From Dehalococcoidia bacterium (GTDB taxonomy: Bacteria; Chloroflexota; Dehalococcoidia; UBA2979): a stretch of DNA of 64,000 bases. A model generated the notes under the pieces. That model worked only from the letters and a program-made list of their open reading frames with translations. It did not search any database and was not told the DNA's origin. This document shows positions 3,430 to 63,075 of the stretch, piece after piece. Where the stretch lies: NCBI GenBank assembly GCA_965204835.1, contig OZ242017.1:290336-354335 (forward strand). Direction: 5' to 3'. Positions within the stretch are counted from its first letter, which is position 1. The number at the start of each line of letters is the position of its first letter. The translations under genes and the position numbers were made by a program.

Positions 3430-4542
3430 TTGGCTGCTGAACTGCAGAGCCCTGAGCTTCGGATCGAGGAGCAGGACTCCGACTACGTGAAGCTGGTGAT
3501 GGAGCCGCTCGAGGCCGGCTTCGGCACCACCGTCGGCAACGCGCTGCGGCGCGTGCTGCTGTCGTCCCTGCCGGGGGCGGCGATCACGTCCGTACGCATC
3601 GAGGGCGTCGACCATGAGTTCTCGACCATCGACCACATGCAGGAGGACGTGACCGAGCTGCTGCTGAACCTCAAGGAGGTGCGCCTGCGCTCCTTCGCGG
3701 ACCGGCCCGCGCGGCTGTTCCTGGAGGCCAGCGGCGAGACCGAGGTCCGCGCCGGCGACGTCCGCGCCACCGCGGACTACGAGGTCGTCAACCCGGACCT
3801 GCACGTCGCGACGCTCGACAACCCGGAGGCGTCGCTCGTCGTCGACCTGAACGTCGAGACGGGCCGCGGGTACACCCCGGCGGCGATGGCCGAGGGCCTG
3901 CCGATCGGCGTCATCCCGATCGACGCGCTCTTCACGCCGGTGCGGCGCGTCAACTACAACGTCTCGCACACCCGCGTCGGGCAGGACACGAACTTCGACC
4001 GACTCGAGCTCGAGGTGTGGACGGACGGCACCCTCACCGGCGAGCAGGCCATCTCGATGGCCGCGGACATCCTCCGCGACCAGCTGCAGCCGCTGCAGCT
4101 GCTGGGCCGCGTCGAGCCGGAGCCGGAGCGCGCCGCGACGGAAGCCGCGCGCCCCTTCGACGGCTACGAGACGCCCATCGAGGAGCTGGAGCTCTCCGTG
4201 CGCGCCTACAACTGCCTCAAGCGCTCCGGGCTGACCACCGTCGGCGCGATCCTCGAGCGCTCCGAGGAGGAGCTGCTGGCGCTGCGCAACTTCGGGGAGA
4301 AGTCCTACGAGGAGCTGCGCGACAAGCTGGCCGAGCACGGCTTCCCGGCCCCGCGCGGCGACGCGCGACGCCCGGCGGAGACCGCCCCCGTGGCCGAGCC
4401 GGTCGCGGCCGGCGCCGCGGTGACCAGCGAGGCGCCCGCGGCCGAGGACGACGAGGACGGGGTGGGCTCGCTGGGCGCGGCGCTGATACAGGCGTTGCGC
4501 GAGGCCGGCGAGGACCCCGCGGACCTCGTCGAGACCGAGTAG
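3430..4542 (+). CDS. rpoA: DNA-directed RNA polymerase subunit alpha with acidic C-terminal tail
   Basis: 370 aa, TTG start. NTD ...GTTVGNALRRVLLSSLPGAAITSVRIEGV.HEF. CTD ...LELSVRAYNCLKRSGLTTVGAILERSEEELLALRNFGEKSYEEL. Confidence 0.95.
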   Translation: MAAELQSPELRIEEQDSDYVKLVMEPLEAGFGTTVGNALRRVLLSSLPGAAITSVRIEGVDHEFSTIDHMQEDVTELLLNLKEVRLRSFADRPARLFLEASGETEVRAGDVRATADYEVVNPDLHVATLDNPEASLVVDLNVETGRGYTPAAMAEGLPIGVIPIDALFTPVRRVNYNVSHTRVGQDTNFDRLELEVWTDGTLTGEQAISMAADILRDQLQPLQLLGRVEPEPERAATEAARPFDGYETPIEELELSVRAYNCLKRSGLTTVGAILERSEEELLALRNFGEKSYEELRDKLAEHGFPAPRGDARRPAETAPVAEPVAAGAAVTSEAPAAEDDEDGVGSLGAALIQALREAGEDPADLVETE

Positions 4543-4574: not shown

Positions 4575-4925
4575 ATGCGCCACAAGGTCGACGGCCGAAA
4601 GTTCGATATGCCCACCGCGCAGCGGATGGCGATGATGCGCAATCTCACCACCGACGTGCTGCGCTACGGCTCCGTGCAGACCACCGAGGCGCGCGCCAAG
4701 GAGGCGCGCCGCTTCGTCGACCGCATGGTCACGCTCGGCAAGCGCGGGACGCTGCACGCACGCCGCCAGGCGCTCGCGTTCATCTACGACCCGAAGGTGG
4801 TGCAGCGGCTCTTCGACGAGCTCGCGCCGCAGTACGCCAACCGCCCGGGCGGGTACACGCGCGTCCAGAAGCTGGGCCAGCGCAAGGGCGACGGCTCGCG
4901 CATGGCGAAGCTGGAGTTGGTGTAG
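4575..4925 (+). CDS. rplQ: 50S ribosomal protein L17
   Basis: 116 aa, MRHKVDGRKF.MPTAQRMAMMRNL...GGYTRV.KL..RKGDG..MA.LEL. Confidence 0.95.
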   Translation: MRHKVDGRKFDMPTAQRMAMMRNLTTDVLRYGSVQTTEARAKEARRFVDRMVTLGKRGTLHARRQALAFIYDPKVVQRLFDELAPQYANRPGGYTRVQKLGQRKGDGSRMAKLELV

Positions 4926-15334: not shown

Positions 15335-16426
15335 TCACGACGCCGCCTCGACGCCCACGGCCGACGCCGCCGCGACGGCAGACGCGATCGAGGGGCCGTA
15401 GGGCGCGCGTAGCACCCCCTGCTCCGTCACGATCGCGTCGATCAGCTCCGCCGGGGTCACGTCGAACGCCGGGTTGAGCGCCCGCGCGCCGGGCGCCACG
15501 AGGTCCGCGCCGCCCGGGCGCAGCACCTCGTCCTCGGCGCGCTCCTCGATGGGGATCGAGGCGCCGTCGGGCGTGTGGGGGTCGAGGGTGGAGACGGGCG
15601 CGACGATGTAGAACGGGATGCCGTGGTGGCGGGCGAGCGCCGCGAGCATGTACGTGCCGATCTTGTTGGCGGTGTCGCCGTTGGCGGCGACGCGGTCGGC
15701 GCCCGTGACGACGGCCGTGACGCGGCCGGCAGCCATCAGCGACGCTGCCGCGCCCTCGACGACGAGCCGGAACGGCACGACGTGCCGTTGCAGCTCCCAC
15801 GCCGTCAGGCGCGCGCCCTGCAGCCGCGGGCGCGTCTCGCACGCGAGCACCTCGGTGAGCCGCCCGCTGCGCCACCCCTCGACGATGACGCCGAGGGCGG
15901 TGCCGCCGCCCGCGGTGGCGAGCGGGCCGGTGTTGCAGAGCGTCATCACGCGCGTGGCGGGCGGGAACAGCGCCGCGCCGAGTTCCGCCATGCGGGCGTC
16001 GGCGGCGTGCTGCTCCGCGTGGATCGCACGCGCCTCGTCGAGCGCGACGGCGCGCGCCTCGTCGTCGTTCGACGCACCCGCGACCCGGGCGGCGACGCGG
16101 TCCAGCGCCCAGCGCAGGTTCACGGCGGTCGGGCGCGTCGTGCCGAGCACCCGCGCGGCCTCCTCGACGGCCGCGACGACGCCGGACGGCGTCGAGGCGG
16201 CGGTGACGGCGAGCGCGTAGGCGGCGGTCACGCCGATGGCCGGCGCGCCGCGCACGCGCATGGTGGTGATGGCCTCGGCGGCGGCCTCGACGGTGTCGAG
16301 GGGGATGTAGCGCTCCTCGGCGGGGAGCAGGGTCTGGTCGAGGAGCCACAGCCGCCCCTCGCGCCACGCGACGGGCTCGTAGGGCTCACGGGTGGATGCG
16401 GCGTCGGGCGCCCGTGCCATGCACAC
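15335..16426 (-). CDS. mtnA: Methylthioribose-1-phosphate isomerase
   Basis: 363 aa. ...LLDQTLLP.EE.Y......V..AI..M.VRGAPAIGV.AAY..., ...GADRVAANGDTANKIGTY, eIF-2B/MtnA family. The start could be the second ATG at 16420. Confidence 0.9.
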   Translation of the reverse strand: MCMARAPDAASTREPYEPVAWREGRLWLLDQTLLPAEERYIPLDTVEAAAEAITTMRVRGAPAIGVTAAYALAVTAASTPSGVVAAVEEAARVLGTTRPTAVNLRWALDRVAARVAGASNDDEARAVALDEARAIHAEQHAADARMAELGAALFPPATRVMTLCNTGPLATAGGGTALGVIVEGWRSGRLTEVLACETRPRLQGARLTAWELQRHVVPFRLVVEGAAASLMAAGRVTAVVTGADRVAANGDTANKIGTYMLAALARHHGIPFYIVAPVSTLDPHTPDGASIPIEERAEDEVLRPGGADLVAPGARALNPAFDVTPAELIDAIVTEQGVLRAPYGPSIASAVAAASAVGVEAAS

Positions 16427-19273: not shown

Positions 19274-19600
19274 ATGGCAGCACCGACCGACACCTCAGAC
19301 ACCACCTTCAGCTCCGACGTGCTGGAGCACGACACCCCGGTCCTGGTCGACTTCTGGGCGCCGTGGTGCGGGCCGTGCCGCATGGTCGCCCCCATCGTCG
19401 AGGAGCTCGCCGAGGACTACGACGGCCGCGTCAAGTTCGTGAAGCTCAACACCGACGAGAACCCGATGGTCGCGGGCCAGTACGGCATCCGCTCGATCCC
19501 CACGCTGCTCGTCTTCAAGGGTGGCGAGAAGGTCGGCGAGATCATCGGCTTCCGCCCCAAGGGCGACCTCTCCAAGCGCCTCGACGAGGCGCTCGCCTAG
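19274..19600 (+). CDS. trxA: Thioredoxin
   Basis: 108 aa. ...[18 protein letters not shown]..., [22 protein letters not shown] upstream. Confidence 0.96.
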
Positions 19601-19751
19601 CTGTCGTTGCGCGGGGCCGCCGCGGCGGCCCGCAGCGGCATACCACCGGCCGCGGGTTGCTTCGCAGTCCGCGGCCTTCGTGTGTCCGGGACGTGCGGCG
19701 CCGCTGCCGAGCCGTCCGCGACCGACCGGGCGAGCGGCCGGGGCGGGCCGG

Positions 19752-20315
19752 TCAGAAGTACTTCGCGGCGCCGCCGTAGCCGAGTTGCTTGCCCTGCTCG
19801 GTGGCCCTGAGGAAGCTCCGGAGGCGCTGCTCGAAGACCCCGGGGCGTGACCTCCCGGCGTCGATGTACGCCACCCGGATGCGCCGGTACGCGGCGGAGA
19901 AGCCCTGGTAGCGCTCCCATGCGCGCCCGTTCGCGCGTATCGCGGCGAGGATGTCGTCGGGGAAGACGAACTCCTCGCGCAGCACCTCCGCGACCGCGTC
20001 GCGCATGGAGGGGTGCAGCAGCCCCTCGCCGGCCAGCCAGCGCAGCCGCTCCCGGTTCAGCTGCGAGTAGGTGCTGCCGCGCCTCCTGGGCGAGAAGCGC
20101 TGGGCGGCCCGCAGCTCGCCGAGCTTCTTGACGATGCTGTCGATCCAGCCGAAACAGAGCGCCTCCTCGACAGCGTCGTTGTAGAGGATGCGCGGCTCGC
20201 CCGACGCCTTGTTCGGGTAGACGAGCCAGATCTCACGGGCGCTGTCGAAGTGGGCCTCGAGCCAGCCGCGCCACTGCTCGCGCTCGGTGACGTAGAGCGT
20301 CTCGCCGATCTCCAT
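19752..20315 (-). CDS. YdeI/OmpD-associated family protein
   Basis: 187 aa. ...W..WLE.H......IWLVY.....G......Y.DAVEEALCFGWIDS......RF.PRR..S.YS..N, family pattern recalled from memory. Confidence 0.7.
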   Translation of the reverse strand: MEIGETLYVTEREQWRGWLEAHFDSAREIWLVYPNKASGEPRILYNDAVEEALCFGWIDSIVKKLGELRAAQRFSPRRRGSTYSQLNRERLRWLAGEGLLHPSMRDAVAEVLREEFVFPDDILAAIRANGRAWERYQGFSAAYRRIRVAYIDAGRSRPGVFEQRLRSFLRATEQGKQLGYGGAAKYF

Positions 20316-20343
20316 CGGTCGCTCGCCCCGGGAGCGGCGGGGG

Positions 20344-20787
20344 TCAGTCCTTGCGGATGATGCGGCCCTGCTTCTTCTCGAGGCGGGCCAGGGCGCGCCC
20401 CTTGTCGGGGTGCGGGTCCTTCACGAGGCCGTAGATCTCGCGGCCTTCGTGGTCTTCTGGGAGGTACTCGGTGATGGGAAGACCTTCCTCATTACAGAAG
20501 AGCAGTCAGTGGCAGTACTTGTATTTCTGCATCTCCTCGCAGGCGCAGATCCACGTCGAGCGCTTCACCTCTGCTTCCTTGTCCTCGTAGAAGTTGCAGG
20601 GACACAGCGGGCGGCCGAGGTCGTCGACGTGCTTGGCGAGCCCGATCACGAGGAACTCGGTGATCTCGCGCTGCGGGTGGAGGTACGTGCCGCTCTTCTC
20701 GGCGAACTTCTCGACGAACTTCCACATCCGCTGCATGGACTTCTCGGACGCCTCCGCGCGGTCGGCGTCGGTTGGCTGTTCGAGCAC
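20344..20787 (-). CDS. Ferredoxin:thioredoxin reductase catalytic-subunit homolog with in-frame UGA (candidate selenocysteine) at the CHC active-site cysteine
   Basis: GTG 20787 with GGGAG SD. ...GLAKHVDDLGRPLCPCNFYEDKEAEVKRSTWICACEEMQKYKYCH-[TGA 20508..20506]-LLFCNEEGLPITEY...RIIRKD, then TGA 20346..20344. The motif CPC-x16-CxC-x8-CH[U] matches the FTRc spacing CPC-x16-CPC-x8-CHC. The frame stays open 53 codons past the UGA. A tRNA-Sec lies in the same window. Confidence 0.75.
20472..20491 (-). promoter_or_regulatory. SECIS-like hairpin downstream of the FTRc UGA
   Basis: RNA UGAGGAAGGUCUUCCCAUCA begins 14 nt after the UGA. Stem GGAA/UUCC extends through UG/CA with one bulged A. Apical tetraloop is GGUC. 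Folded by eye only. Confidence 0.4.
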
Positions 20788-22767: not shown

Positions 22768-23067
22768 CTAGCCGTCGACGAGCTTCGCGAGGACATCCTG
22801 GAAGCGGATGATGATGTAGTCCTCGTTCTCGACGTTGATCTCCTGGCCCGTGTACTTCTGGTAGAGGACCCGGTCACCCTCGCCGAGGTCGATGGTCTCG
22901 ACCACGCCGGCGTCGTTCATCTTGCCGGGGCCGACGGAGACGACGTTGCCGTGCTGGGGCTTCTCCTTCGCGGAGTCGGGGATGACGAGCCCGGAGGCCG
23001 TCAGCTCTTCCTCCTCGATGGCCTGCAGCACGATGTGATCGGTGAGCGGGACGACTGATGTAGCCAA
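22768..23067 (-). CDS. groES: Co-chaperonin GroES
   Basis: 99 aa, TTG start. ...SGLVIPDSAKEKPQHGNVVSVGPG...GDRVLYQKYTGQE. Confidence 0.93.
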   Translation of the reverse strand: MATSVVPLTDHIVLQAIEEEELTASGLVIPDSAKEKPQHGNVVSVGPGKMNDAGVVETIDLGEGDRVLYQKYTGQEINVENEDYIIIRFQDVLAKLVDG

Positions 23068-23268: not shown

Positions 23269-23595
23269 ATGAATTCGTGTATGCTGGAGGGCATGGCGGA
23301 GGAGAGCGGGCGGTACCTGGCTGGCGGCGGCGAGCGCCGCGATGAGGACTGGGCCAGCGGGCGCGGCGTGCGCCGGCTGCGCCGTCACCTCGGTGAGACG
23401 CAGGCGGCCTTCGCGGACCGCCTCGGCACGAACCAGCAGACGGTCTCGGAGTGGGAGCGCGGCGCGCGCCGGCCGCGGCGCATGGCCCGGCGCCTGCTCC
23501 ACCTCGTCGCCGAGCAGGCCGGCTACTACGACGCCACCGACATCGACACCCCGGACGCGGACGGCGACGGGGAAGACGGGGAGGGGGACGGGTAG
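23269..23595 (+). CDS. XRE-family helix-turn-helix transcriptional regulator with acidic tail
   Basis: 108 aa. HTH LRRHLGETQAAFADRLGTNQQTVSEWERGARRP. C-terminal DTPDADGDGEDGEGDG. Confidence 0.7.
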   Translation: MNSCMLEGMAEESGRYLAGGGERRDEDWASGRGVRRLRRHLGETQAAFADRLGTNQQTVSEWERGARRPRRMARRLLHLVAEQAGYYDATDIDTPDADGDGEDGEGDG

Positions 23596-23599
23596 CGCC

Positions 23600-24670
23600 A
23601 TGACGCCCACGCTGACCGCGCCGCGCGCCGCCGCGCTCGCCGCGCCGCTGCAGGAGCGGGAGCTCGTCGCACTGTGGCTGCTGGGGCGCGTGCCGGCGGA
23701 GCTCCTGCCGTGGCCGCTGCTGCGCGCGGGCCGCGCCGGGCGCGGGCCCGGCCCGGACGTGCGCGAGGCCGCGTTCGCGGGCCCTCACGGCGTCGTGCTC
23801 TGCGGGGACGTCGAGGTTCACCTCGCCGCCACGGACTTCGTCCACCACGGCCATCTTGATGACCCCGCCTACGCGGACGTGGTGCTGCACCTCGTGTGGC
23901 GCGACGACCGGCCGCCGGGCGGCCCCGCGGAGGCCGGGGGGCCGCAGCCGCTGCCTGGGGGCGGCGGCGCACCCACCGTCGAGGTCGGTCCGGCGCTCGG
24001 GTCGGACCCGGCCCGGCTGCGGCGGCTGCTGCGCAAGGGCCCGCGGGGCACGGAGCCCTGCGCGGCCACCGCACGCGCTCGCGGCCCCGCCGCCACGGCG
24101 GAGCTCGTCCGCGCCGAGGGCCGCAGGCGCCTCGCGGAGCGCGCCTGGCACGCCGCCGCGCTCGCCGCGGAGCACGGCTGGGACGGCGCGTGGGAGGCGC
24201 TGCTGGACGGCGCCCTGCGCGGCAGCGCCGGCCGCCGCCGCGAGACGCCGGAGCAGCGCGCCGCGCTCGCCGCCCGGCTCGCCGCGTCGCTCGGCCTCGA
24301 CGTCCTCCAGTCGTTGCGCTCGCTCGCCGTGGAGGGCGGGGCGCGGCCGCGCGCCCTGATCGCCGCGCTCCGCGGCGGTGACGCCATCGGCCCGGGCCGC
24401 GCCGCCGAGGTGGGCTGGAACGCAGCGCTCCCGCTGCTCGCCGCCTCCGCCGCCGCCTTCGATGACCCCACCCTCGCCCGCGCCACCGCGGACCTCGCCG
24501 AGCGCTGGCCCGCGCCTCGCCCCTATGGCCGCACGCGCGCCCTCGCGGATCTCCTTGGCCCACCGCCGCGCGGCGCGGGCGCCCAGCACGCGCAGGGCCT
24601 CCTCCACCTCCAGGACCTGTGGTGCAACCGCGGCGGCTGCGGGCGGTGTCCCGCCTCTTTGCAGGACTAA
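23600..24670 (+). CDS. DUF2851-like protein
   Basis: 356 aa from ATG 23600 inside track ORF 23342-24670. ERELVALW..., GDVEVHLAATDFVHHGHLDDPAYADVVLHLVW..., C-terminal QGLLHLQDLWCNRGGCGRCP. Family assignment from memory. Confidence 0.6.
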   Translation: MTPTLTAPRAAALAAPLQERELVALWLLGRVPAELLPWPLLRAGRAGRGPGPDVREAAFAGPHGVVLCGDVEVHLAATDFVHHGHLDDPAYADVVLHLVWRDDRPPGGPAEAGGPQPLPGGGGAPTVEVGPALGSDPARLRRLLRKGPRGTEPCAATARARGPAATAELVRAEGRRRLAERAWHAAALAAEHGWDGAWEALLDGALRGSAGRRRETPEQRAALAARLAASLGLDVLQSLRSLAVEGGARPRALIAALRGGDAIGPGRAAEVGWNAALPLLAASAAAFDDPTLARATADLAERWPAPRPYGRTRALADLLGPPPRGAGAQHAQGLLHLQDLWCNRGGCGRCPASLQD

Positions 24671-24852
24671 CTTCGGCTCGTCTGTGGTCTTCTGGCGGCA
24701 GTCATGCAGCGCTTACGTGCTGTTGCGGGCTCGAATCTGCGGGCAGTGTCCTGCCTCTTGCGGTAGTCATTTCGGGCTCGTCTGTGGTGTTCCGGCGACA
24801 GTCATGCTGCGTCTGCTTGTTAGTGCGCGGCCGAGTCCGCGGATCGGTCGGG
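24637..24852 (+). repeat. Tandem 100-nt repeat: copy 1 24637-24736, copy 2 24737-24836, plus about 16 nt of a further unit
   Basis: CTGCGGGCGGTGTCCCGCCTCTTTGCAGGACTAACTTCGGCTCGTCTGTGGTCTTCTGGCGGCAGTCATGCAGCG... recurs exactly 100 nt later with scattered substitutions and 1-nt indels. Copy 1 includes the last 11 codons of the DUF2851 gene. Confidence 0.85.
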
Positions 24853-24919
24853 AGAGCTCAGGGATGACGCGGAACGCGTCGTCGCTCGGCGCTCGTGCGC
24901 CCCTGTGACGGGAGAGCCG

Positions 24920-24925
24920 TAGAAT
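24920..24925 (+). promoter_or_regulatory. Candidate -10 box for selC
   Basis: TAGAAT ends 6 nt before the first tRNA nucleotide. No convincing -35. Confidence 0.35.
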
Positions 24926-24931
24926 CACCGC

Positions 24932-25028
24932 GGGAGTGGATGGTGTCCGGTGGCGCCCGCGGTCTTCAAAACCGTTGTGGGGCTGCGTCGCAGTCCCGGG
25001 TGGGTTCGACCCCCACGCACTCCCGCCA
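24932..25028 (+). tRNA. selC: tRNA-Sec (anticodon UCA), CCA encoded
   Basis: 97 nt. Acceptor GGGAGTG(G)/(G)CACTCCC with discriminator G and CCA. 6-bp D-stem GGTGTC/GGCGCC with 4-nt loop. Anticodon loop CUUCAAA (TCA at 24966-24968). Long variable arm GGGGCUGC...GCAGUCCC. T-arm GTGGG-TTCGACC-CCCAC. Aligns block by block with E. coli selC recalled from memory. Confidence 0.9.
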
Positions 25029-25040
25029 CCGGCGTTCGCC

Positions 25041-25140
25041 GGGCTTTGCAGGAGGTTCCCGGCCTTGCTTGCCGTGGCAGGCGACGGTCATGCGGCTCCG
25101 GACCGTCGGCGGTCGACCGGGCTTGCTGGGGTGGGCTTGC
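25041..25140 (+). repeat. Diverged third copy of the about 100-nt repeat, downstream of selC
   Basis: Shares the blocks TTTGCAGGA and GGCGACGGTCATGCGGC with copies 1 and 2 (TTTGCAGGA; GGCGGCAGTCATGCAGC / GGCGACAGTCATGCTGC) in the same order and spacing. Confidence 0.45.
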
Positions 25141-25348
25141 CTGCCTGCCGTCTGGGTGCGGCGGCGCTCCACTGCGGCGCGCGAATCACCCCCAGGCTGT
25201 GACCCGTTCCTGCTCAACGCTCCCTACTGACCAAGCGGCTCCCACGTCCCACGTGTCCTGACTGGATCGGTGAGCCGGTCGCCGCGCAGACACTCGGAGG
25301 ATCGGAGCACAGGCTCCCCCGTGTCCGGCACGCTGGCGCACCCTCCTG

Positions 25349-26428
25349 CTAAGACGCGCGAATGCGCGCCAGGAGGCGGTCTTCCCAGGACCAGTCGAAC
25401 TCGAGCGACTCGTGGAGGCCCTCGGAGCGGTACCACTCGTAGGTCTGCTCGACGGCGGTGCGGAACGTGTAGGCGGGCTCCCAGCCGATGTCGCGGCGCA
25501 GGCGTTCGATCGAGAAGACCGTGCTCTCGTTCCAGCGATGGATGTACGGGGCCAGGCGCTGGATCATCTGCTGCAGGTACGGGAGATTGCGCTGGCTCTG
25601 CGGCGCGGTCACCGCCCCGAAGTTGCCCGGCTCCTCGGGGTCGTCGGCGAGCGCGATCTCGCCGTCGTAGATGGCGTCCATCGTCCCGGGCGGGATGAAC
25701 ACCTTGTCCGCCTCGACGCCGAGGATGTCGGCGAAGGTGTCGACGTAGCCCTCGTCGCTCCAGTAGTCGCGGCCAGTCAGGTTGTAGCGCTTGCCGAAGG
25801 TCTGGGGCTGCTGCATCAGCATGCGCATGGCCGCGGCCTCGTCGTCGACGTGGCCGATCTGGCTGAGCGTGGTGCCGTCGCCGGGGATCATCACCGGGCG
25901 GCCCTGCAGAAGGCGGCTGAACATGCGCTGCTCGCGCACGGGGATGATGTTGTGCGGGCCGAACACCATCGAGAACGGCACGATGGTGGCCGGGAAGCCG
26001 TGCTCACGGTGCTCGCGCAGCAGCATCGCCTCGCACGCCAGCTTGTCCAGGCCGTACTGCGACTGCCGATCGGTCCCGTCGACGGGCGAGCTCTCACGGA
26101 TCGGCAGCACCTTCGTGGCGGCGTAGATCACCGTCGAGCTGGCGAAGATGTAGTGGCCGGTGCGGCCCTTGAAGATCTCCACCATGATCTCGACGTCCTC
26201 CGGCGTGTATCCGGAGATGTCCTGGATGGCGTCGAACTCCTCGTCCGCGAAGACCTCACGCATGCCGTCGTGGTCGGTGCGGTCGCCGTAGAGGCGGCGC
26301 ACGCCGCGCGGCAGCTTGGCCTCGGTCTGGCCGCGGTTGAAGATCGTGACGTCGTGGCCGTGCCGGACCAGCTCGTGGACCAGCGCGAGCCCGTTAAAGC
26401 GCGTCCCGCCCATCACCAGCACCTTCAT
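25349..26428 (-). CDS. NAD-dependent epimerase/dehydratase family protein
   Basis: 359 aa from ATG 26428. MKVLVMGGTRFNGLAL (Rossmann fold), catalytic YGLDK. Confidence 0.85.
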   Translation of the reverse strand: MKVLVMGGTRFNGLALVHELVRHGHDVTIFNRGQTEAKLPRGVRRLYGDRTDHDGMREVFADEEFDAIQDISGYTPEDVEIMVEIFKGRTGHYIFASSTVIYAATKVLPIRESSPVDGTDRQSQYGLDKLACEAMLLREHREHGFPATIVPFSMVFGPHNIIPVREQRMFSRLLQGRPVMIPGDGTTLSQIGHVDDEAAAMRMLMQQPQTFGKRYNLTGRDYWSDEGYVDTFADILGVEADKVFIPPGTMDAIYDGEIALADDPEEPGNFGAVTAPQSQRNLPYLQQMIQRLAPYIHRWNESTVFSIERLRRDIGWEPAYTFRTAVEQTYEWYRSEGLHESLEFDWSWEDRLLARIRAS

Positions 26429-26529
26429 GGTCGCCTCCCTGCGTGTGCTCCGACTGCTCGTGGATCGTCGGGCCGCTACGCGCCGAGCGCCTCGGCCCGC
26501 AGGCGGAGGCACAGAACGGCCCACCCGCC

Positions 26530-27171
26530 TCAGCCCGCGAGGGCGGAGGCAAAGAACGGCCCGACAGCCTGCTCGATCGCGTACTCGTCGCCCCACCAGA
26601 AGTGGTCGGCGCCCGCCACCACGCGCACCGACGCCTCGCCCGCGCACGACTCGGCGAGGGCCTGCAGCCCGGCCTCGTTGCTGCCCTCGTCCTCGCTGCC
26701 GGAGATGAGCAGCAGCGGCCCCGTGAAGGCGGCGAGGGCGTCGTGCGCGCCCTCCGCCATCATCAGCGGCAGCGAGACCAGCGCCAGCGCCGGGAGCGCG
26801 TCGCCGGCCACGCCCACCGCGGTGCCCGCACCGAAGGAGTAGCCCGCGAGGCCGACGCGGTCGGCGTCGATCTCATCGAGGCCGGCGGCGTACGCCAGCA
26901 CGCTGGTGGTGTCCGTGCGGGCCTCGTCGCCGTCGCCGGGGACGCCGTCGGAGCCGCCGACGCCGCGGAAGTTGAACATGACGGCCGCGATGCCGCGCGC
27001 GACAACGCTCGAGGCGACGGCGGCGACGACGTTGTTGTGCATCGAGCCGCCGTACTCGGGGTGCGGGTGGCAGATCACGACGGCCCCGAAGGGGCCGGCA
27101 CCGTCGGGGAGTGTGAGCACGCCCTCCAGGCTGGCGCCGTCGCTCTCGATGGTGATGCGGCGTTGCGGCAT
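26530..27171 (-). CDS. Alpha/beta hydrolase (dienelactone hydrolase-like)
   Basis: 213 aa. ...VVICHPHPEYGGSM.N, nucleophile elbow LAGYSFGAG, C-terminal ...GADHFW. Confidence 0.72.
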   Translation of the reverse strand: MPQRRITIESDGASLEGVLTLPDGAGPFGAVVICHPHPEYGGSMHNNVVAAVASSVVARGIAAVMFNFRGVGGSDGVPGDGDEARTDTTSVLAYAAGLDEIDADRVGLAGYSFGAGTAVGVAGDALPALALVSLPLMMAEGAHDALAAFTGPLLLISGSEDEGSNEAGLQALAESCAGEASVRVVAGADHFWWGDEYAIEQAVGPFFASALAG

Positions 27172-28063: not shown

Positions 28064-28908
28064 CTACAGCTCGATGATCTCCGCCGGCTCGGGCGTGGGG
28101 ACGCGACGCTCGCGCGGCACGCGCGCGGCCTCCAGGCGTGAGAGCAGCGCCAGCGCCTTGCGGGTGTCCGACGCGACGCGCGCCGGCTCCGCCAGCCGGA
28201 AGCGGTACTTCGAGCACCAGTAGGTGAACGCCGCCATCTCCGCCTGGCTCACGTTCGACCCCAGCGTTGCGCCCGTCTCGATGCGGTACTCGGCCGCGAG
28301 GTCGGCGAACGTCTTGCTGTAGACGCGCTCGTACGCCGCGACGTCCGAGGGCTCGCCGCGCGGCCCCTCCAGGTGTCGCGCCTTGTGCAGGTCCTGCTCG
28401 GCCTGGAGCAGCAGCGCCTCCTCCACGGTCACGCCGTACTGGAAGTTGAGGTGCGCGCGGTACTTCTCGCGGCCGATGGCGCGCGCGAACGCCTCCTCCG
28501 AGGGGTCCTCGCCCAGCGGCGGCCTGCCCTCGAAGACCAGCCGCTCCGCCTCGTCGGCGGGGATGAGGTCGCCCGCGGCGTCGATCAGCCGCTCGGCCAG
28601 CCGTCGCCAGTCGAACGCCTCGCCGCCGAGCAGGTAGCGGTAGGTCGCCTCGTCGACCCGCTCCTCGGGCGTGACCCAGCGCCCCACGACGGCGAGCAGG
28701 GCTGGATACCACGGCTCGCCGGCCCGCAACGCAGCCAGGAACGACTCGACGCCTTCCTCGGCGTCGAGCGCGGGCAGCAGCGGCTGGTCGAAGTCGTCGA
28801 AGCTGTCGAGGCCGGGGTGGCTGTCGGCGGCGCTGGGCGCGGGGGCGCCGTTGCGGCGGGACTTCGACGCGCGGCGCGCGCGCTTCGTCGTGCCGCCGCG
28901 GGCGGGGG

Positions 28909-28912
<4 letters not shown>
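28064..28912 (-). CDS. Hypothetical protein translationally coupled to secA
   Basis: 282 aa from GTG 28912 (GTGA overlap with the secA stop). Basic N-terminus, no motif recognised. The track ORF 28064-31054 is this gene plus a long shadow extension. Confidence 0.6.
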
Positions 28913-31476
<2,564 letters not shown>

Positions 31477-31497: not shown

Positions 31498-32481
31498 CTA
31501 GCGGAAGAGCTCGCCGACGGAACCGCCGGTGTGAATGCGGTGCATCGCGTCGCCGAAGTACGGCGCGACCGAGAGCACGTGCGTGGGCACATGCTGGAAG
31601 GCGCCGTCGGCGATCGGCACGGTGTCGGTAAAGACCAGCTCGGAGATGTCGGTCGTGTCCAGGCGCTCGAAGGCGGCGCCCGCGAACAGCGGGTGGATGG
31701 TGCCGACGTAGACCGACCGCGCGCGGTTGCGGCGCAGCAGCTCGAGCGCGCTCGCGACGGTGCCGCCGGTCAGGATCTCGTCGTCGACGATGATCGCGTC
31801 GCGGTCCTCGACCTCGCCGATGATGGTCATCGCCTCGGCCTGCTCGTCGTTGGAGGTGCGGCGCTTGTCGACGATGGCGAGCTCGGCGCCGAGGCGCTCG
31901 GCGACGTCGCGCGCTCCCTTTGCGCCGCCGACGTCGGTGGCGACGATGACCGGGCGCGGGAGGTTGAGCGAGCGGAAGTACTCGGCGATGTGCGGCTGGG
32001 CGTGGAGCTCGTCCAGCGGGATGTTGAAGAAGCCCTGGATCTGGCCCGCGTGCAGGTCCATCGTCAGCACGCGGTCCGCCCCGGCCACCTCGATGAAGTT
32101 GGCGACGAGGCGCGCGGTGATGGGGACGCGGGGCTGGTCCTTCTTGTCGGAGCGGCCGTACGCGAAGTACGGGATCACCGCCGTGATGCGGCCCGCCGAG
32201 GCCCGCTTGGCGGCGTCGATCATGATGAACAGCTCCATCAGGCTGGTGTTCACCGGCGGAGCGATCGGCTGGATCAGGAAGACGTCGCGCTCGCGGATGT
32301 TGTCCAGGAAGCGCACGAAGATGTTGCCGTTGGAGAACTCGAAGACCTCGTTGCGCCCCAGGGGCATCTCGAGGTGCTTGCAGACGGCCTCGGCGAACTC
32401 ACGGTGCGCGTTGCCGCTGAACACCGCCATCTCGCGATAGACGCCAAGGTTGTCCGGCTCGTTCATGCCTCCACCAACCAC
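31498..32481 (-). CDS. prs: Ribose-phosphate pyrophosphokinase
   Basis: 327 aa. ...DLHAGQIQGFF..., PRPP loop AIIVDDEILTGGT. The start may instead be ATG 32466. Confidence 0.92.
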   Translation of the reverse strand: MVGGGMNEPDNLGVYREMAVFSGNAHREFAEAVCKHLEMPLGRNEVFEFSNGNIFVRFLDNIRERDVFLIQPIAPPVNTSLMELFIMIDAAKRASAGRITAVIPYFAYGRSDKKDQPRVPITARLVANFIEVAGADRVLTMDLHAGQIQGFFNIPLDELHAQPHIAEYFRSLNLPRPVIVATDVGGAKGARDVAERLGAELAIVDKRRTSNDEQAEAMTIIGEVEDRDAIIVDDEILTGGTVASALELLRRNRARSVYVGTIHPLFAGAAFERLDTTDISELVFTDTVPIADGAFQHVPTHVLSVAPYFGDAMHRIHTGGSVGELFR

Positions 32482-59846: not shown

Positions 59847-60686
59847 CTACTCCAGCGTGAGCGGCGTGTCCTCGCGGTTCGCCCACTCGCCCATCGAGCC
59901 GTCGTAGTTGCGTGCGCGGTCGTTGCCGAGCATGCGCAGGACGAAGGCCGCGAACGCGGCCCTGATGCCACCCTGTCAGTAGGTGACGGTCGCCACCTCC
60001 GGGTCGATCCCCGCGCCCTCGATCAGCTCCCGGATCTCGTCGAGGGGCCGGAAGCGGCGTGACGGCGGCCCCTGCATGAGCCGCAGCCACTCGAGGTGCT
60101 TCGCGCCCGGCACGTGGCCGGCGCGCTGGTTGCCGCGGTCGTTCGAGCCGTCCCACTCGCCGTCGGAGCGCGTGTCCCAGATCTGCGGTGCGTCCGGCGC
60201 GTCGAGGCCAGCCTCGACGATCGCCATAAGCTCGTCGACCGTGCAGTGCGCGCCGCGGTCCACGCGCGCCTCGAACGTCGCGGGCGCGGGGCGCGCGGGC
60301 GCCGAGGTGAGCGGGCGGCCCTCGTGCAGCCAGGCGTTGAGGCCGCCGTCGACGACGCGCACGTCGCGGTGGCCGAAGTGCTCGAAGACCCACCACACGC
60401 GCGCGGCGTGCAGCGAGGCGTTGTCGTCGTAGATGACGACGGGCGTGTCGTTGGAGATGCCGAGGCGGCCCATGAGGGCCTCGAACTCCGGCGGGGTCAT
60501 GACCAGGCGGCTGTTCTCGCGGCCCTTGAGGTAGGGGTGGGGGAGCCCGACGGAGCCGGGGATGTGCGCGCGCCGGTAGGCGACCGCCTCCCCGGCGTCG
60601 ATGAGCGCGAAGTCCGTGCCGACGCCGTCGAGGTGGTCGGCGAGCCAGTCGGTGGTGGTGAGCAGCTCGGACTGCGCGGTCGTCAT
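59847..60686 (-). CDS. Two-domain rhodanese (thiosulfate/3-mercaptopyruvate sulfurtransferase-like) with in-frame UGA (candidate selenocysteine) at the catalytic cysteine
   Basis: ATG 60686 with GAGGAGG SD. ...RRAHIPGS... (domain 1), ...RAGHVPGAKHLEW...DPEVATVTY-[TGA 59978..59976]-QGGIRAAFAAFVLRMLGNDRARNYDGSMGEWANREDTPLTLE, then TAG 59849..59847. The UGA sits where the active-site loop C-x-x-G-x-R-(A/S) starts. The downstream 42 codons are the expected end of a rhodanese domain. Confidence 0.78.
59944..59963 (-). promoter_or_regulatory. SECIS-like hairpin downstream of the rhodanese UGA
   Basis: RNA AGGGCCGC-GUUC-GCGGCCUU: 6 GC pairs plus G-U and A-U closing pairs, GUUC tetraloop. It starts 12 nt after the UGA. 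Folded by eye only. Confidence 0.45.
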
Positions 60687-61666: not shown

Positions 61667-62914
61667 CTACGGGCCGCGACCCGCGAAGATCGCGGGCGGG
61701 AACGCGGGCTCGACGTCGTCGGGGATGCCCTCGCGGATCGCGCGCTCCACCGTCTCGGCGGCGAGGTCCACCTCGGCCTCGGTGTTGAAGGCGTGCAGCG
61801 AGAGCCGCACGCTGTTGAACTCCGCCACCGACCGGCACACGACCCGGGCCTCGGCCTGCAGGAAGGCGTTCACGTCGGCCGCCGGCAGGTCGTCGACCAC
61901 GAAGCAGAACAGCCCCGTGCGCGTCGAGTCGTGGCGAGGGCTCACCACGCTCACGCCCTCGATGCGCCCGAAGCGCTGCTCGGCGTAGCGGTTGAGCTCC
62001 TGCGCGCGGGCGAGGACCGCCTCGGGGCCGGAGTCGAGGAACCACTCGGCGGCCTCGAGCGTACCGGCGATGAGCGGCGTCGAGGTCGTCGTGAGCTCGT
62101 ACTTGGTGATGCGCTCGCGCTCCGGCTCGAAGTTGCCCGCGAAGTCGTACGAGGCCGCCGCACGGCCCGCGACCTTCGCCGGCTCGACGAGCGGGATGAG
62201 GTCCTCGCGGATGTAGAGCGCTCCGAGGCCGTCCGGCCCGCACAGCCACTTGTGCGAGGGGATCGCGTAGAAGTCGACGTTCGTCGCGCGCACGTCGATG
62301 GGGATGTGCCCGGCGGTCTGCGCGCCGTCGACCACCACGTGGCCGCCGCGGCGGTGGGTCTCCTCGACGATCGTGCCGAGGGGCAGGAGCTGGCCGGTCG
62401 AGTACGAGATCTCGGAGAGGATGACGAGCTTGATGTTCCCGCTCGCCGCGTCCATCGCCGAGACGAACGACTCCATCGCCGCGCCGGGCGAGTCCTGCGC
62501 GTCGATGGGCACGATGGCCACCTCGCAGCCCGTGCGCTCGCGCAGGTAGTAGGCGGGGACGATGCCGGAGCCGTGCTCGACGTCGGTGGTGACGATGGTG
62601 TCGGCGGAGGTCACCTCGAGGCCGTTGGTGATGACGTTGATGCCCTCGGTGGTGTTGCCGGTGATGGCGATCTCGTCGGGCGATGCGCCGCCGACGAGGC
62701 GGCCCATCACCTCGCGGTAGCGCCCGGCGAGGTCGAAGCGGTCATCGAGGGCGTGGCGGGTGGTCGAACCGTGCATGAGTTCGAGGTCGAGGCGCTGCTG
62801 GACGGCCTCGTGGGTGGCGCGGCGCTTGGGGCCGGAGAAGCCGGAGTTCATGTACGCGTACTCGATGAGTGCGGGCGTGTCGTCGCGCCACGCCTGCCAG
62901 CGCTCGTTGCTCAT
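61667..62914 (-). CDS. Class V aminotransferase-fold PLP enzyme (cysteine desulfurase / selenocysteine lyase-like)
   Basis: 415 aa from ATG 62914. ...ITGNTTEGIN..., ...VVDGAQTAGHIPIDV...DFYAIPSHKWLCGP.G.G.LY (PLP Lys), C-terminal ...VRLSLHAFNTEAEVD. Confidence 0.82.
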   Translation of the reverse strand: MSNERWQAWRDDTPALIEYAYMNSGFSGPKRRATHEAVQQRLDLELMHGSTTRHALDDRFDLAGRYREVMGRLVGGASPDEIAITGNTTEGINVITNGLEVTSADTIVTTDVEHGSGIVPAYYLRERTGCEVAIVPIDAQDSPGAAMESFVSAMDAASGNIKLVILSEISYSTGQLLPLGTIVEETHRRGGHVVVDGAQTAGHIPIDVRATNVDFYAIPSHKWLCGPDGLGALYIREDLIPLVEPAKVAGRAAASYDFAGNFEPERERITKYELTTTSTPLIAGTLEAAEWFLDSGPEAVLARAQELNRYAEQRFGRIEGVSVVSPRHDSTRTGLFCFVVDDLPAADVNAFLQAEARVVCRSVAEFNSVRLSLHAFNTEAEVDLAAETVERAIREGIPDDVEPAFPPAIFAGRGP

Positions 62915-63075
62915 GCAGCCGCCTCCGTCGCATGTCCCGATCGTGGCCCCTCGCGTCCGAGGTGCTCGTGCGAGTCTACCGCGAGCAGGCGCAGTGGGCC
63001 GCACGACGAGCCGCGAGCGGCGGGGGGCGCGGCCCTATGATGGCGGCGAGGCAGTGACGGGTGAGGGAGGCTGGC

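Follow-up and report, generated by a model that had tools for sequence, protein, structure and literature searches.

A tRNA-Sec (selC) gene on the same contig as two genes with UGA at catalytic cysteine positions in a sponge-associated Chloroflexota bacterium

Results

The selC gene and its cloverleaf

The window, defined here as the whole 64 kb stretch of DNA that was analysed, contains a gene for the selenocysteine tRNA with one mismatched position in its acceptor stem:

24932-25028, plus strand: selC, tRNA-Sec; 97 nt, anticodon UCA, discriminator G, encoded CCA
24939 and 25017, read in the sequence: G-G mismatch between tRNA positions 8 and 86

The plus-strand sequence of the gene is GGGAGUGGAUGGUGUCCGGUGGCGCCCGCGGUCUUCAAAACCGUUGUGGGGCUGCGUCGCAGUCCCGGGUGGGUUCGACCCCCACGCACUCCCGCCA. 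ARAGORN, applied to the 64 kb window, calls a sole tRNA, a tRNA-SeC with anticodon TCA at exactly 24932-25028 on the plus strand, and assigns no other isotype. All Rfam families were also scanned over the 64 kb at their gathering thresholds, and the only hit is the tRNA-Sec family RF01852 at 24932-25024, with 73.7 bits (gathering score 47) and E = 3.2e-13. The match is full-length, extending over model positions 1-91. Both programs agree with the tRNA-Sec identity and the coordinates proposed in the initial annotation.

The acceptor stem is built from seven Watson-Crick pairs, G1-C93 to G7-C87, followed by G8 opposite G86, and the linker A9 U10 connects it to the D arm. The latter displays a 6-bp stem (11-16/21-26), in which two pairs are G-U, and a 4-nt loop, CGGU. 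The anticodon arm is formed by the stem 28-32/40-44 and the 7-nt loop CUUCAAA, where UCA occupies positions 35-37. The variable arm has 8 bp (48-55/59-66) and the T arm consists of an uninterrupted 5-bp stem (69-73/81-85) closed by the loop UUCGACC. At the 3' end, the discriminator G94 (equivalent to G73) precedes the CCA encoded at 95-97. The 5-bp T stem and the eight acceptor positions, with G-G as the eighth, result in a 13-layer acceptor/T branch of the 8/5 type. Described beforehand were the 97-nt length, the anticodon loop, the 6-bp D stem with its 4-nt loop, a variable arm of about 8 bp, the 5-bp T stem with its TTCGACC loop, the discriminator G, the encoded CCA and an acceptor of seven Watson-Crick pairs extended by a G-G at the eighth position, and each was verified on the sequence.

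The long variable arm and G73 constitute the SerRS identity elements of the window tRNA. Similar arms are found in tRNAs that are not charged toward selenocysteine: SelC*-type tRNA-Cys(UCA) and allo-tRNAs, which would lead to UGA being read as Cys or Ser, exist with tRNA-Sec-like D and variable arms and possibly a UCA anticodon, and an (8/4) form of tRNA-Sec has been reported in Chloroflexi (PMC5389517). In contrast to such look-alikes, the window tRNA has G73 and a bulge-free 5-bp T stem, its T loop and discriminator are separated by 13 nt, and its score on the tRNA-Sec model is well above threshold (73.7 vs 47). It is thus extremely unlikely that the gene encodes a look-alike of this kind.

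Single-sequence MFE folding of the tRNA gives z = -1.5, a value that is uninformative in 70% G+C DNA. Folding z-scores of the tRNA and of the SECIS and terminator candidates presented below were not used as evidence because they are not significant in such G+C-rich DNA. The modest z-score of the tRNA would fit a chance cloverleaf over-called by the predictors, but the Rfam E value and the conservation of the tRNA, with compensatory changes, across Chloroflexota classes leave a negligible probability for such an artefact. Two ORFs, 24895-25230 and 24950-25261, overlap the tRNA; they are spurious and not genes, since neither carries a codon-position (third-position) G+C signal.

Conservation and covariation in relatives

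Relatives were collected by a degenerate tRNA pattern search of one genome per GTDB species, which yielded at least 120 loci from many phyla; the pattern is permissive and the loci represent a cross-phylum comparison, not an exhaustive set of close relatives. ARAGORN calls tRNA-SeC in 119 of 120 loci among the matches listed. Also among these matches, the tRNA is 100% identical over its 97 nt in L062 (Chloroflexi bacterium SB0661_bin_44) and L020 (a MAG labelled uncultured Dehalococcoidaceae), whose flanks keep the gene order of the window to either side of the tRNA and are 80-92% identical. The lack of any change in 97 nt, against 8-20% divergence of the flanks, indicates on this comparison that selC is under purifying selection. 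The nearest genomes among the matches listed are sponge-associated Chloroflexota MAGs, and the sequence occurs in runs from sponge, coral and marine metagenomes; the organism is therefore an uncultured sponge-associated Chloroflexota bacterium. The GroEL of the window is encoded on contig_1 (2,925,340 bp) of ENA assembly ERZ25068475, where the window takes up roughly 1.065-1.129 Mb.

Covariation was assessed in an alignment of 21 distinct relatives, taken from the matches listed, over 32 cloverleaf pairs. Across this alignment 94.9% of cells are paired; shifting the 3' partners by 1-3 columns lowers this to 49-54%. Compensatory (double) changes are present in 20 of the 32 pairs, and none of 500 shuffles reached the observed values. 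The D stem has 99.2% of its cells paired, with double changes in 4/6 pairs, and in the variable arm all eight pairs (8/8) display double changes. The covariation supports the 13-layer cloverleaf. In other phyla the eighth acceptor position itself covaries, being GC, AU, UA or CG, and is therefore a true pair position. By every sequence-level criterion tested, 24932-25028 is a genuine and ordinary bacterial tRNA-Sec. The kind of gene is already known, as it is found by routine annotation tools and public MAGs already contain the identical tRNA.

The G-G mismatch at the eighth acceptor position

G8 is opposite G86 in 15 of 119 sequences, comprising the window tRNA and 118 loci among the matches listed. 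Thirteen of the 15 are labelled Chloroflexota; the remaining two, L088 and the window, are without phylum label. The G-G loci are L020, L031, L060, L061, L062, L067, L078, L080, L084, L088, L091, L095, L101 and L121, and the groups represented include Dehalococcoidia, Thermoflexus, Limnocylindrales and Thermomicrobiales. The acceptor pairs neighbouring G8/G86 covary in the G-G sequences. Judged on these alignments, the G-G opposition is invariant in one Chloroflexota clade and is not an accident of the window sequence. In E. coli the 8-bp acceptor stem is the SelB determinant, and the mismatched eighth pair is to that extent a point against the selenocysteine reading. A G-G at the acceptor/T junction may tune the discrimination between SelB and EF-Tu.

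Gene neighbourhood and Sec machinery

The genes nearest to selC are the following:

23269-23595, plus strand: small HTH protein, upstream of selC
ending at 24670, plus strand: DUF2851-like ORF, upstream of selC
25349-26647, minus strand: NAD-dependent epimerase, downstream of selC

Further upstream lie GroES/GroEL, an FTR-like gene, a thioredoxin gene and PlsX. Downstream, the epimerase is followed by an alpha/beta hydrolase (minus strand), a glyoxalase-family protein (plus strand) and SecA. The remaining window is occupied by ribosomal protein genes, rpoA, genes of methionine salvage and the SAM cycle, ValRS, the nuo operon, GlnA and others. No island is inserted at selC, since there is no integrase in the surroundings of the window gene and synteny with L062 and L020 extends to both sides of the tRNA.

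Several further observations were made in these regions. Between the glyoxalase gene and SecA, an ORF of ~290 codons (28064-28930, minus strand) combines a strong coding bias with no Pfam match and is kept in L062. At a contig end of L020, upstream of selC, a 102-nt unit is repeated 5.4 times (3787-4332); the homologous window segment, 24637-24848, has a single copy. L084 contains a second, partial tRNA-Sec copy (5' half) at 4735-4776, ~2.6 kb from the full gene, which may be the footprint of an element integrated at selC. A thioredoxin gene is located within a few kb of selC in L078, L067, L061 and L118, at ~1.2 kb in the last three; the thioredoxin/FTR-like region of the window spans 19274-20787, and Thermoflexus L078 also has an FTR-like selenoprotein gene near selC. 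Thioredoxin, FTR and selC may thus form a conserved redox/Sec neighbourhood. The stops of the 62 window ORFs with codon-position G+C support are 33 TAG, 25 TGA and 4 TAA, a share of TAG that is high for a ~70% G+C genome.

Domain scans of 50 window ORFs across the 64 kb gave no SelA, SelB or SelD match, and the adjoining 10 kb on the upstream side, a ribosomal protein operon, is similarly devoid of selA, selB and selD. Sel genes do not adjoin selC in the Chloroflexota loci L078, L060, L121, L095 and L091 either, where the neighbours are MFS transporters, formyltransferase, aldolase and similar genes. Among the matches listed, a SelB-like GTPase adjoins selC in many Poribacteria, Acidobacteriota and other loci; in Chloroflexota a SelB-like sequence is near selC only in L080, as a cut ORF fragment ~1 kb away. 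Since most related Chloroflexota loci that were inspected have selC apart from the sel genes, the absence of sel genes nearby is expected and uninformative.

The lack of sel genes within ~74 kb would nevertheless suit a decaying relic, in which selC was left behind after loss of the Sec machinery and is out of use, and loss of Sec use is common in bacteria. Most related Chloroflexota loci examined are, however, also without sel genes beside selC, and 100% conservation of the tRNA between flanks diverged by 8-20% argues against decay. The same contig also carries two genes with UGA at a catalytic Cys position, each with an intact downstream frame and a hairpin, as described below. Taken with these points, a relic is very unlikely.

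Two genes with in-frame UGA

A scan of the window for in-frame TGA codons with strong third-position G+C bias both before and after them left two credible cases:

20344-20787, minus strand: FTR catalytic-subunit homologue, PF02943; 147 codons, UGA at 20506-20508
20475-20491, minus strand: SECIS-like hairpin of the FTR-like gene, identified by eye; GGAA/UUCC stem, GGUC loop
59847-60686, minus strand: two-domain rhodanese / thiosulfate sulfurtransferase homologue, PF00581 twice; 279 codons
59937-59975, minus strand: SECIS-like hairpin of the rhodanese gene; stem GGCCGC/GCGGCC, loop GUUC at +24 to +27

In the FTR-like gene, UGA turns the CHC motif into CHU and is followed by another 53 codons in frame. 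In 7bzk and 1dj7 the residue aligned with U is the final Cys of CHC. The Thermoflexus hugenholtzii homologue (L078 3638-4072) likewise carries TGA at this codon, and its 83% identity extends over the whole length, the extension after UGA included. A gene caller cut the window gene to 93 aa. The hairpin begins 15 nt after UGA and places its loop at +25 to +28; the GGUC loop matches the SECIS loop of E. coli fdhF. The MFE fold of the 69-nt FTR-like region does not pick out the GGAA-GGUC-UUCC hairpin.

In the rhodanese gene, UGA is located at 59976-59978 within the active-site loop TY-U-QGGIRA, where U-QGGIR is unusual, and the U aligns with the catalytic Cys of the thiosulfate sulfurtransferases 1uar and 3hzu. 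Here the hairpin starts directly after UGA, and the MFE and centroid folds agree on it. The folding z-scores of both SECIS candidates are not significant in this G+C-rich DNA. A class-V aminotransferase gene, cysteine desulfurase-like (61667-63004, minus strand), is found 1 kb from the rhodanese. The two UGA-containing coding sequences to which the initial annotation had linked the tRNA are real: both place UGA at the catalytic Cys position, with a SECIS-like hairpin downstream. The FTR catalytic subunit, rhodanese-related proteins and COG2897 sulfurtransferases are listed prokaryotic selenoprotein families, the FTR family having been recognised as such from ocean metagenomes (PMC2398784); both selenoprotein families are therefore already known.

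Three other positions were considered as recoding sites and rejected. The GroES/GroEL junction (22768-22770) and the PRPP synthetase/SecA junction (31498-31500) are TAG stops between ordinary adjacent genes, and the in-frame UGA at 15335-15337 is an ordinary stop flanked by unrelated ORFs (MtnA and, by eye, an HNH-like ORF).

Promoter-like box, 3' end and RNA data

Two further elements border selC:

24920-24925, plus strand: TAGAAT, -10-like hexamer ending 6 nt before tRNA nucleotide 1
25029-25049, plus strand: candidate terminator, CCGGC-GUUC-GCCGG directly after CCA, then GCUUUGC (weak T tract)

The TAGAAT box had been noted at this distance from the gene, and the sequence bears this out. 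There is no recognisable -35 box upstream of the window selC, and a two-hexamer sigma-70 scan found nothing here. By eye, the Anaerolineae relatives display TTGACx-like -35 boxes ~17-19 nt further upstream. A TANNNT hexamer occupies the equivalent position in L062, L020, L078, L060, L061, L080, L031 and others. Its placement was compared over 97 non-redundant loci among the matches listed (L002-L121). TANNNT ends 6, 7 and 8 nt before the tRNA in 19, 15 and 6 loci, respectively, giving 40/97 in total, against a background of ~1 case per offset at the remaining offsets over the same 97 loci. Among the matches listed, the hexamer ends 5-8 nt upstream in 20/25 Chloroflexota, 14/21 Acidobacteriota and 3/4 Gammaproteobacteria, and in 4/24 Poribacteria, 1/16 Alphaproteobacteria and 0/11 Spirochaetota. 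In ten other tRNAs from the same loci it is mostly found 13-15 nt upstream, ten being too few for a proper control. With the hexamer at -12 to -7, the canonical geometry, and 6 nt intervening, the start site would therefore fall on G1, and the placement of the box suggests that transcription starts at the mature 5' end.

Directly after CCA, the inverted repeat at 25029-25049 possibly acts as a terminator, judging from its form. Its fold is no better than that of shuffles and the terminator scan made no call at this position. At the same place L062 has a different hairpin, GGCGGC-ACU-GCCGCC, followed by UCUUUGC.

Metatranscriptome contigs cover 24921-25030 and run on into unrelated upstream sequence of other strains, and therefore they neither locate the transcription start nor demonstrate that the bacterium itself expresses the gene. 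Sponge and coral metatranscriptome contigs from runs X24, X25 and X30 contain closely related tRNA-Sec with 2-6 differences and other flanks. Relatives of the symbiont are therefore present, and possibly expressed, in those samples, although the contigs could be DNA carry-over.

Discussion

The tRNA of the window is conserved and structurally canonical, bears a UCA anticodon together with the SerRS identity elements, and shares its contig with two genes that require UGA to be read as Sec. We are highly confident that 24932-25028 is the single-copy selC for tRNA-Sec(UCA) of a sponge-associated Chloroflexota bacterium and that it serves the nearby UGA genes. By analogy with E. coli, SerRS would charge the tRNA with serine through recognition of the long variable arm and G73, SelA would convert Ser-tRNA-Sec to Sec-tRNA-Sec with selenophosphate provided by SelD, and SelB would deliver Sec-tRNA-Sec to UGA codons with a SECIS hairpin downstream. 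The window has two predicted codons of this kind, at the catalytic Cys positions of the FTR-like subunit and the rhodanese. The selC gene itself looks self-contained, with a -10-like box 6 nt upstream, an encoded CCA and a small hairpin directly after it.

The promoter placement may have a further consequence. With a -10 box fixed 6-7 nt upstream, the first transcribed nucleotide would be G1 of the mature tRNA, and such a leaderless tRNA-Sec would keep its 5'-triphosphate and bypass RNase P. With a leader, RNase P would face a 13-layer acceptor/T substrate and would have to cut it off-register, as it does in E. coli. A leaderless selC in this bacterium and across much of the Chloroflexota and Acidobacteriota, taken jointly with the proposed role of the G-G junction, is a tentative reading drawn from sequence comparison that we consider plausible but rather less than probable. 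A literature search of limited scope found no report of a leaderless bacterial tRNA-Sec. If true, a leaderless selC in bacteria would parallel the tRNA-Sec gene of eukaryotes, which also lacks a leader.

The gene matters mainly for annotation and adds nothing on tRNA-Sec itself. The genome would read some UGA codons as selenocysteine, and the FTR-like and rhodanese proteins are to be annotated at full length with Sec at their active sites. Only the placement of the promoter across the lineage and the conservation of the G-G mismatch lead beyond the routine.

Comparison with known tRNA-Sec systems

The E. coli selC used as a reference was verified, being found at 100% identity in 5,425 of 5,426 E. 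coli genomes. The window gene is identical to it in 69 of 99 aligned columns (~70%), in agreement with the alignment claimed initially. The two genes share the 8/5 layout, the 6-bp D stem, the CGGU loop and CUUCAAA, together with the long variable arm, the UUCGA T loop, G73, the encoded CCA and a monocistronic gene. In contrast, the eighth acceptor pair is a Watson-Crick C8-G in E. coli and a G opposite G in the window. The upstream elements also differ, as the TATAAT of E. coli selC ends 32 nt upstream and the -10-like box of the window ends 6 nt upstream. In E. coli, selC is transcribed from a start site at -25, and RNase P cuts off the resulting 25-nt leader (PMC12439589).

Within the Chloroflexota, the window tRNA matches L062 and L020 exactly and shares 80-96% identity with the rest, among the matches listed. 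It shares G8/G86, the D and T arms and the position of the -10-like box with Dehalococcoidia, Thermoflexus, Limnocylindrales and Thermomicrobiales. It differs from other Chloroflexota tRNA-Sec only by stem substitutions, most of which are compensatory. In Anaerolineae-type relatives the eighth pair is G-C and the final A of CCA is missing from the gene, whereas the window has G-G and encodes CCA.

An (8/4) tRNA-Sec has been reported for some Chloroflexi and Actinobacteria; SelC* tRNA-Cys displays U73 and an 8/4 branch bulged at 51a, and in allo-tRNAs the branch is 12 bp long and of the 8/4 or 9/3 type (PMC5389517). The window tRNA resembles the (8/4), SelC* and allo-tRNA molecules in its D and variable arms, and the (8/4) form comes from the same phylum. 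In contrast to their 12-bp branches with T stems of 4 or 3 bp, the T stem of the window tRNA consists of five clean pairs. Unlike the (8/4) forms with a bulge at 51a, it has no bulge and its 3' strand comprises 13 positions, and unlike SelC* tRNA-Cys with U73 its discriminator is G. Assignment of the window tRNA as an (8/4), SelC* or allo-tRNA was thus ruled out by the 5-bp T stem, the lack of a bulge and G73.

In eukaryotic tRNA-Sec, transcription starts at the first mature nucleotide and there is no 5' leader. The window gene would likewise start at the mature 5' end only if its promoter geometry holds. The eukaryotic molecules are of the 9/4 type and are made from a different polymerase and promoter, whereas the window tRNA is 8/5 and bacterial.
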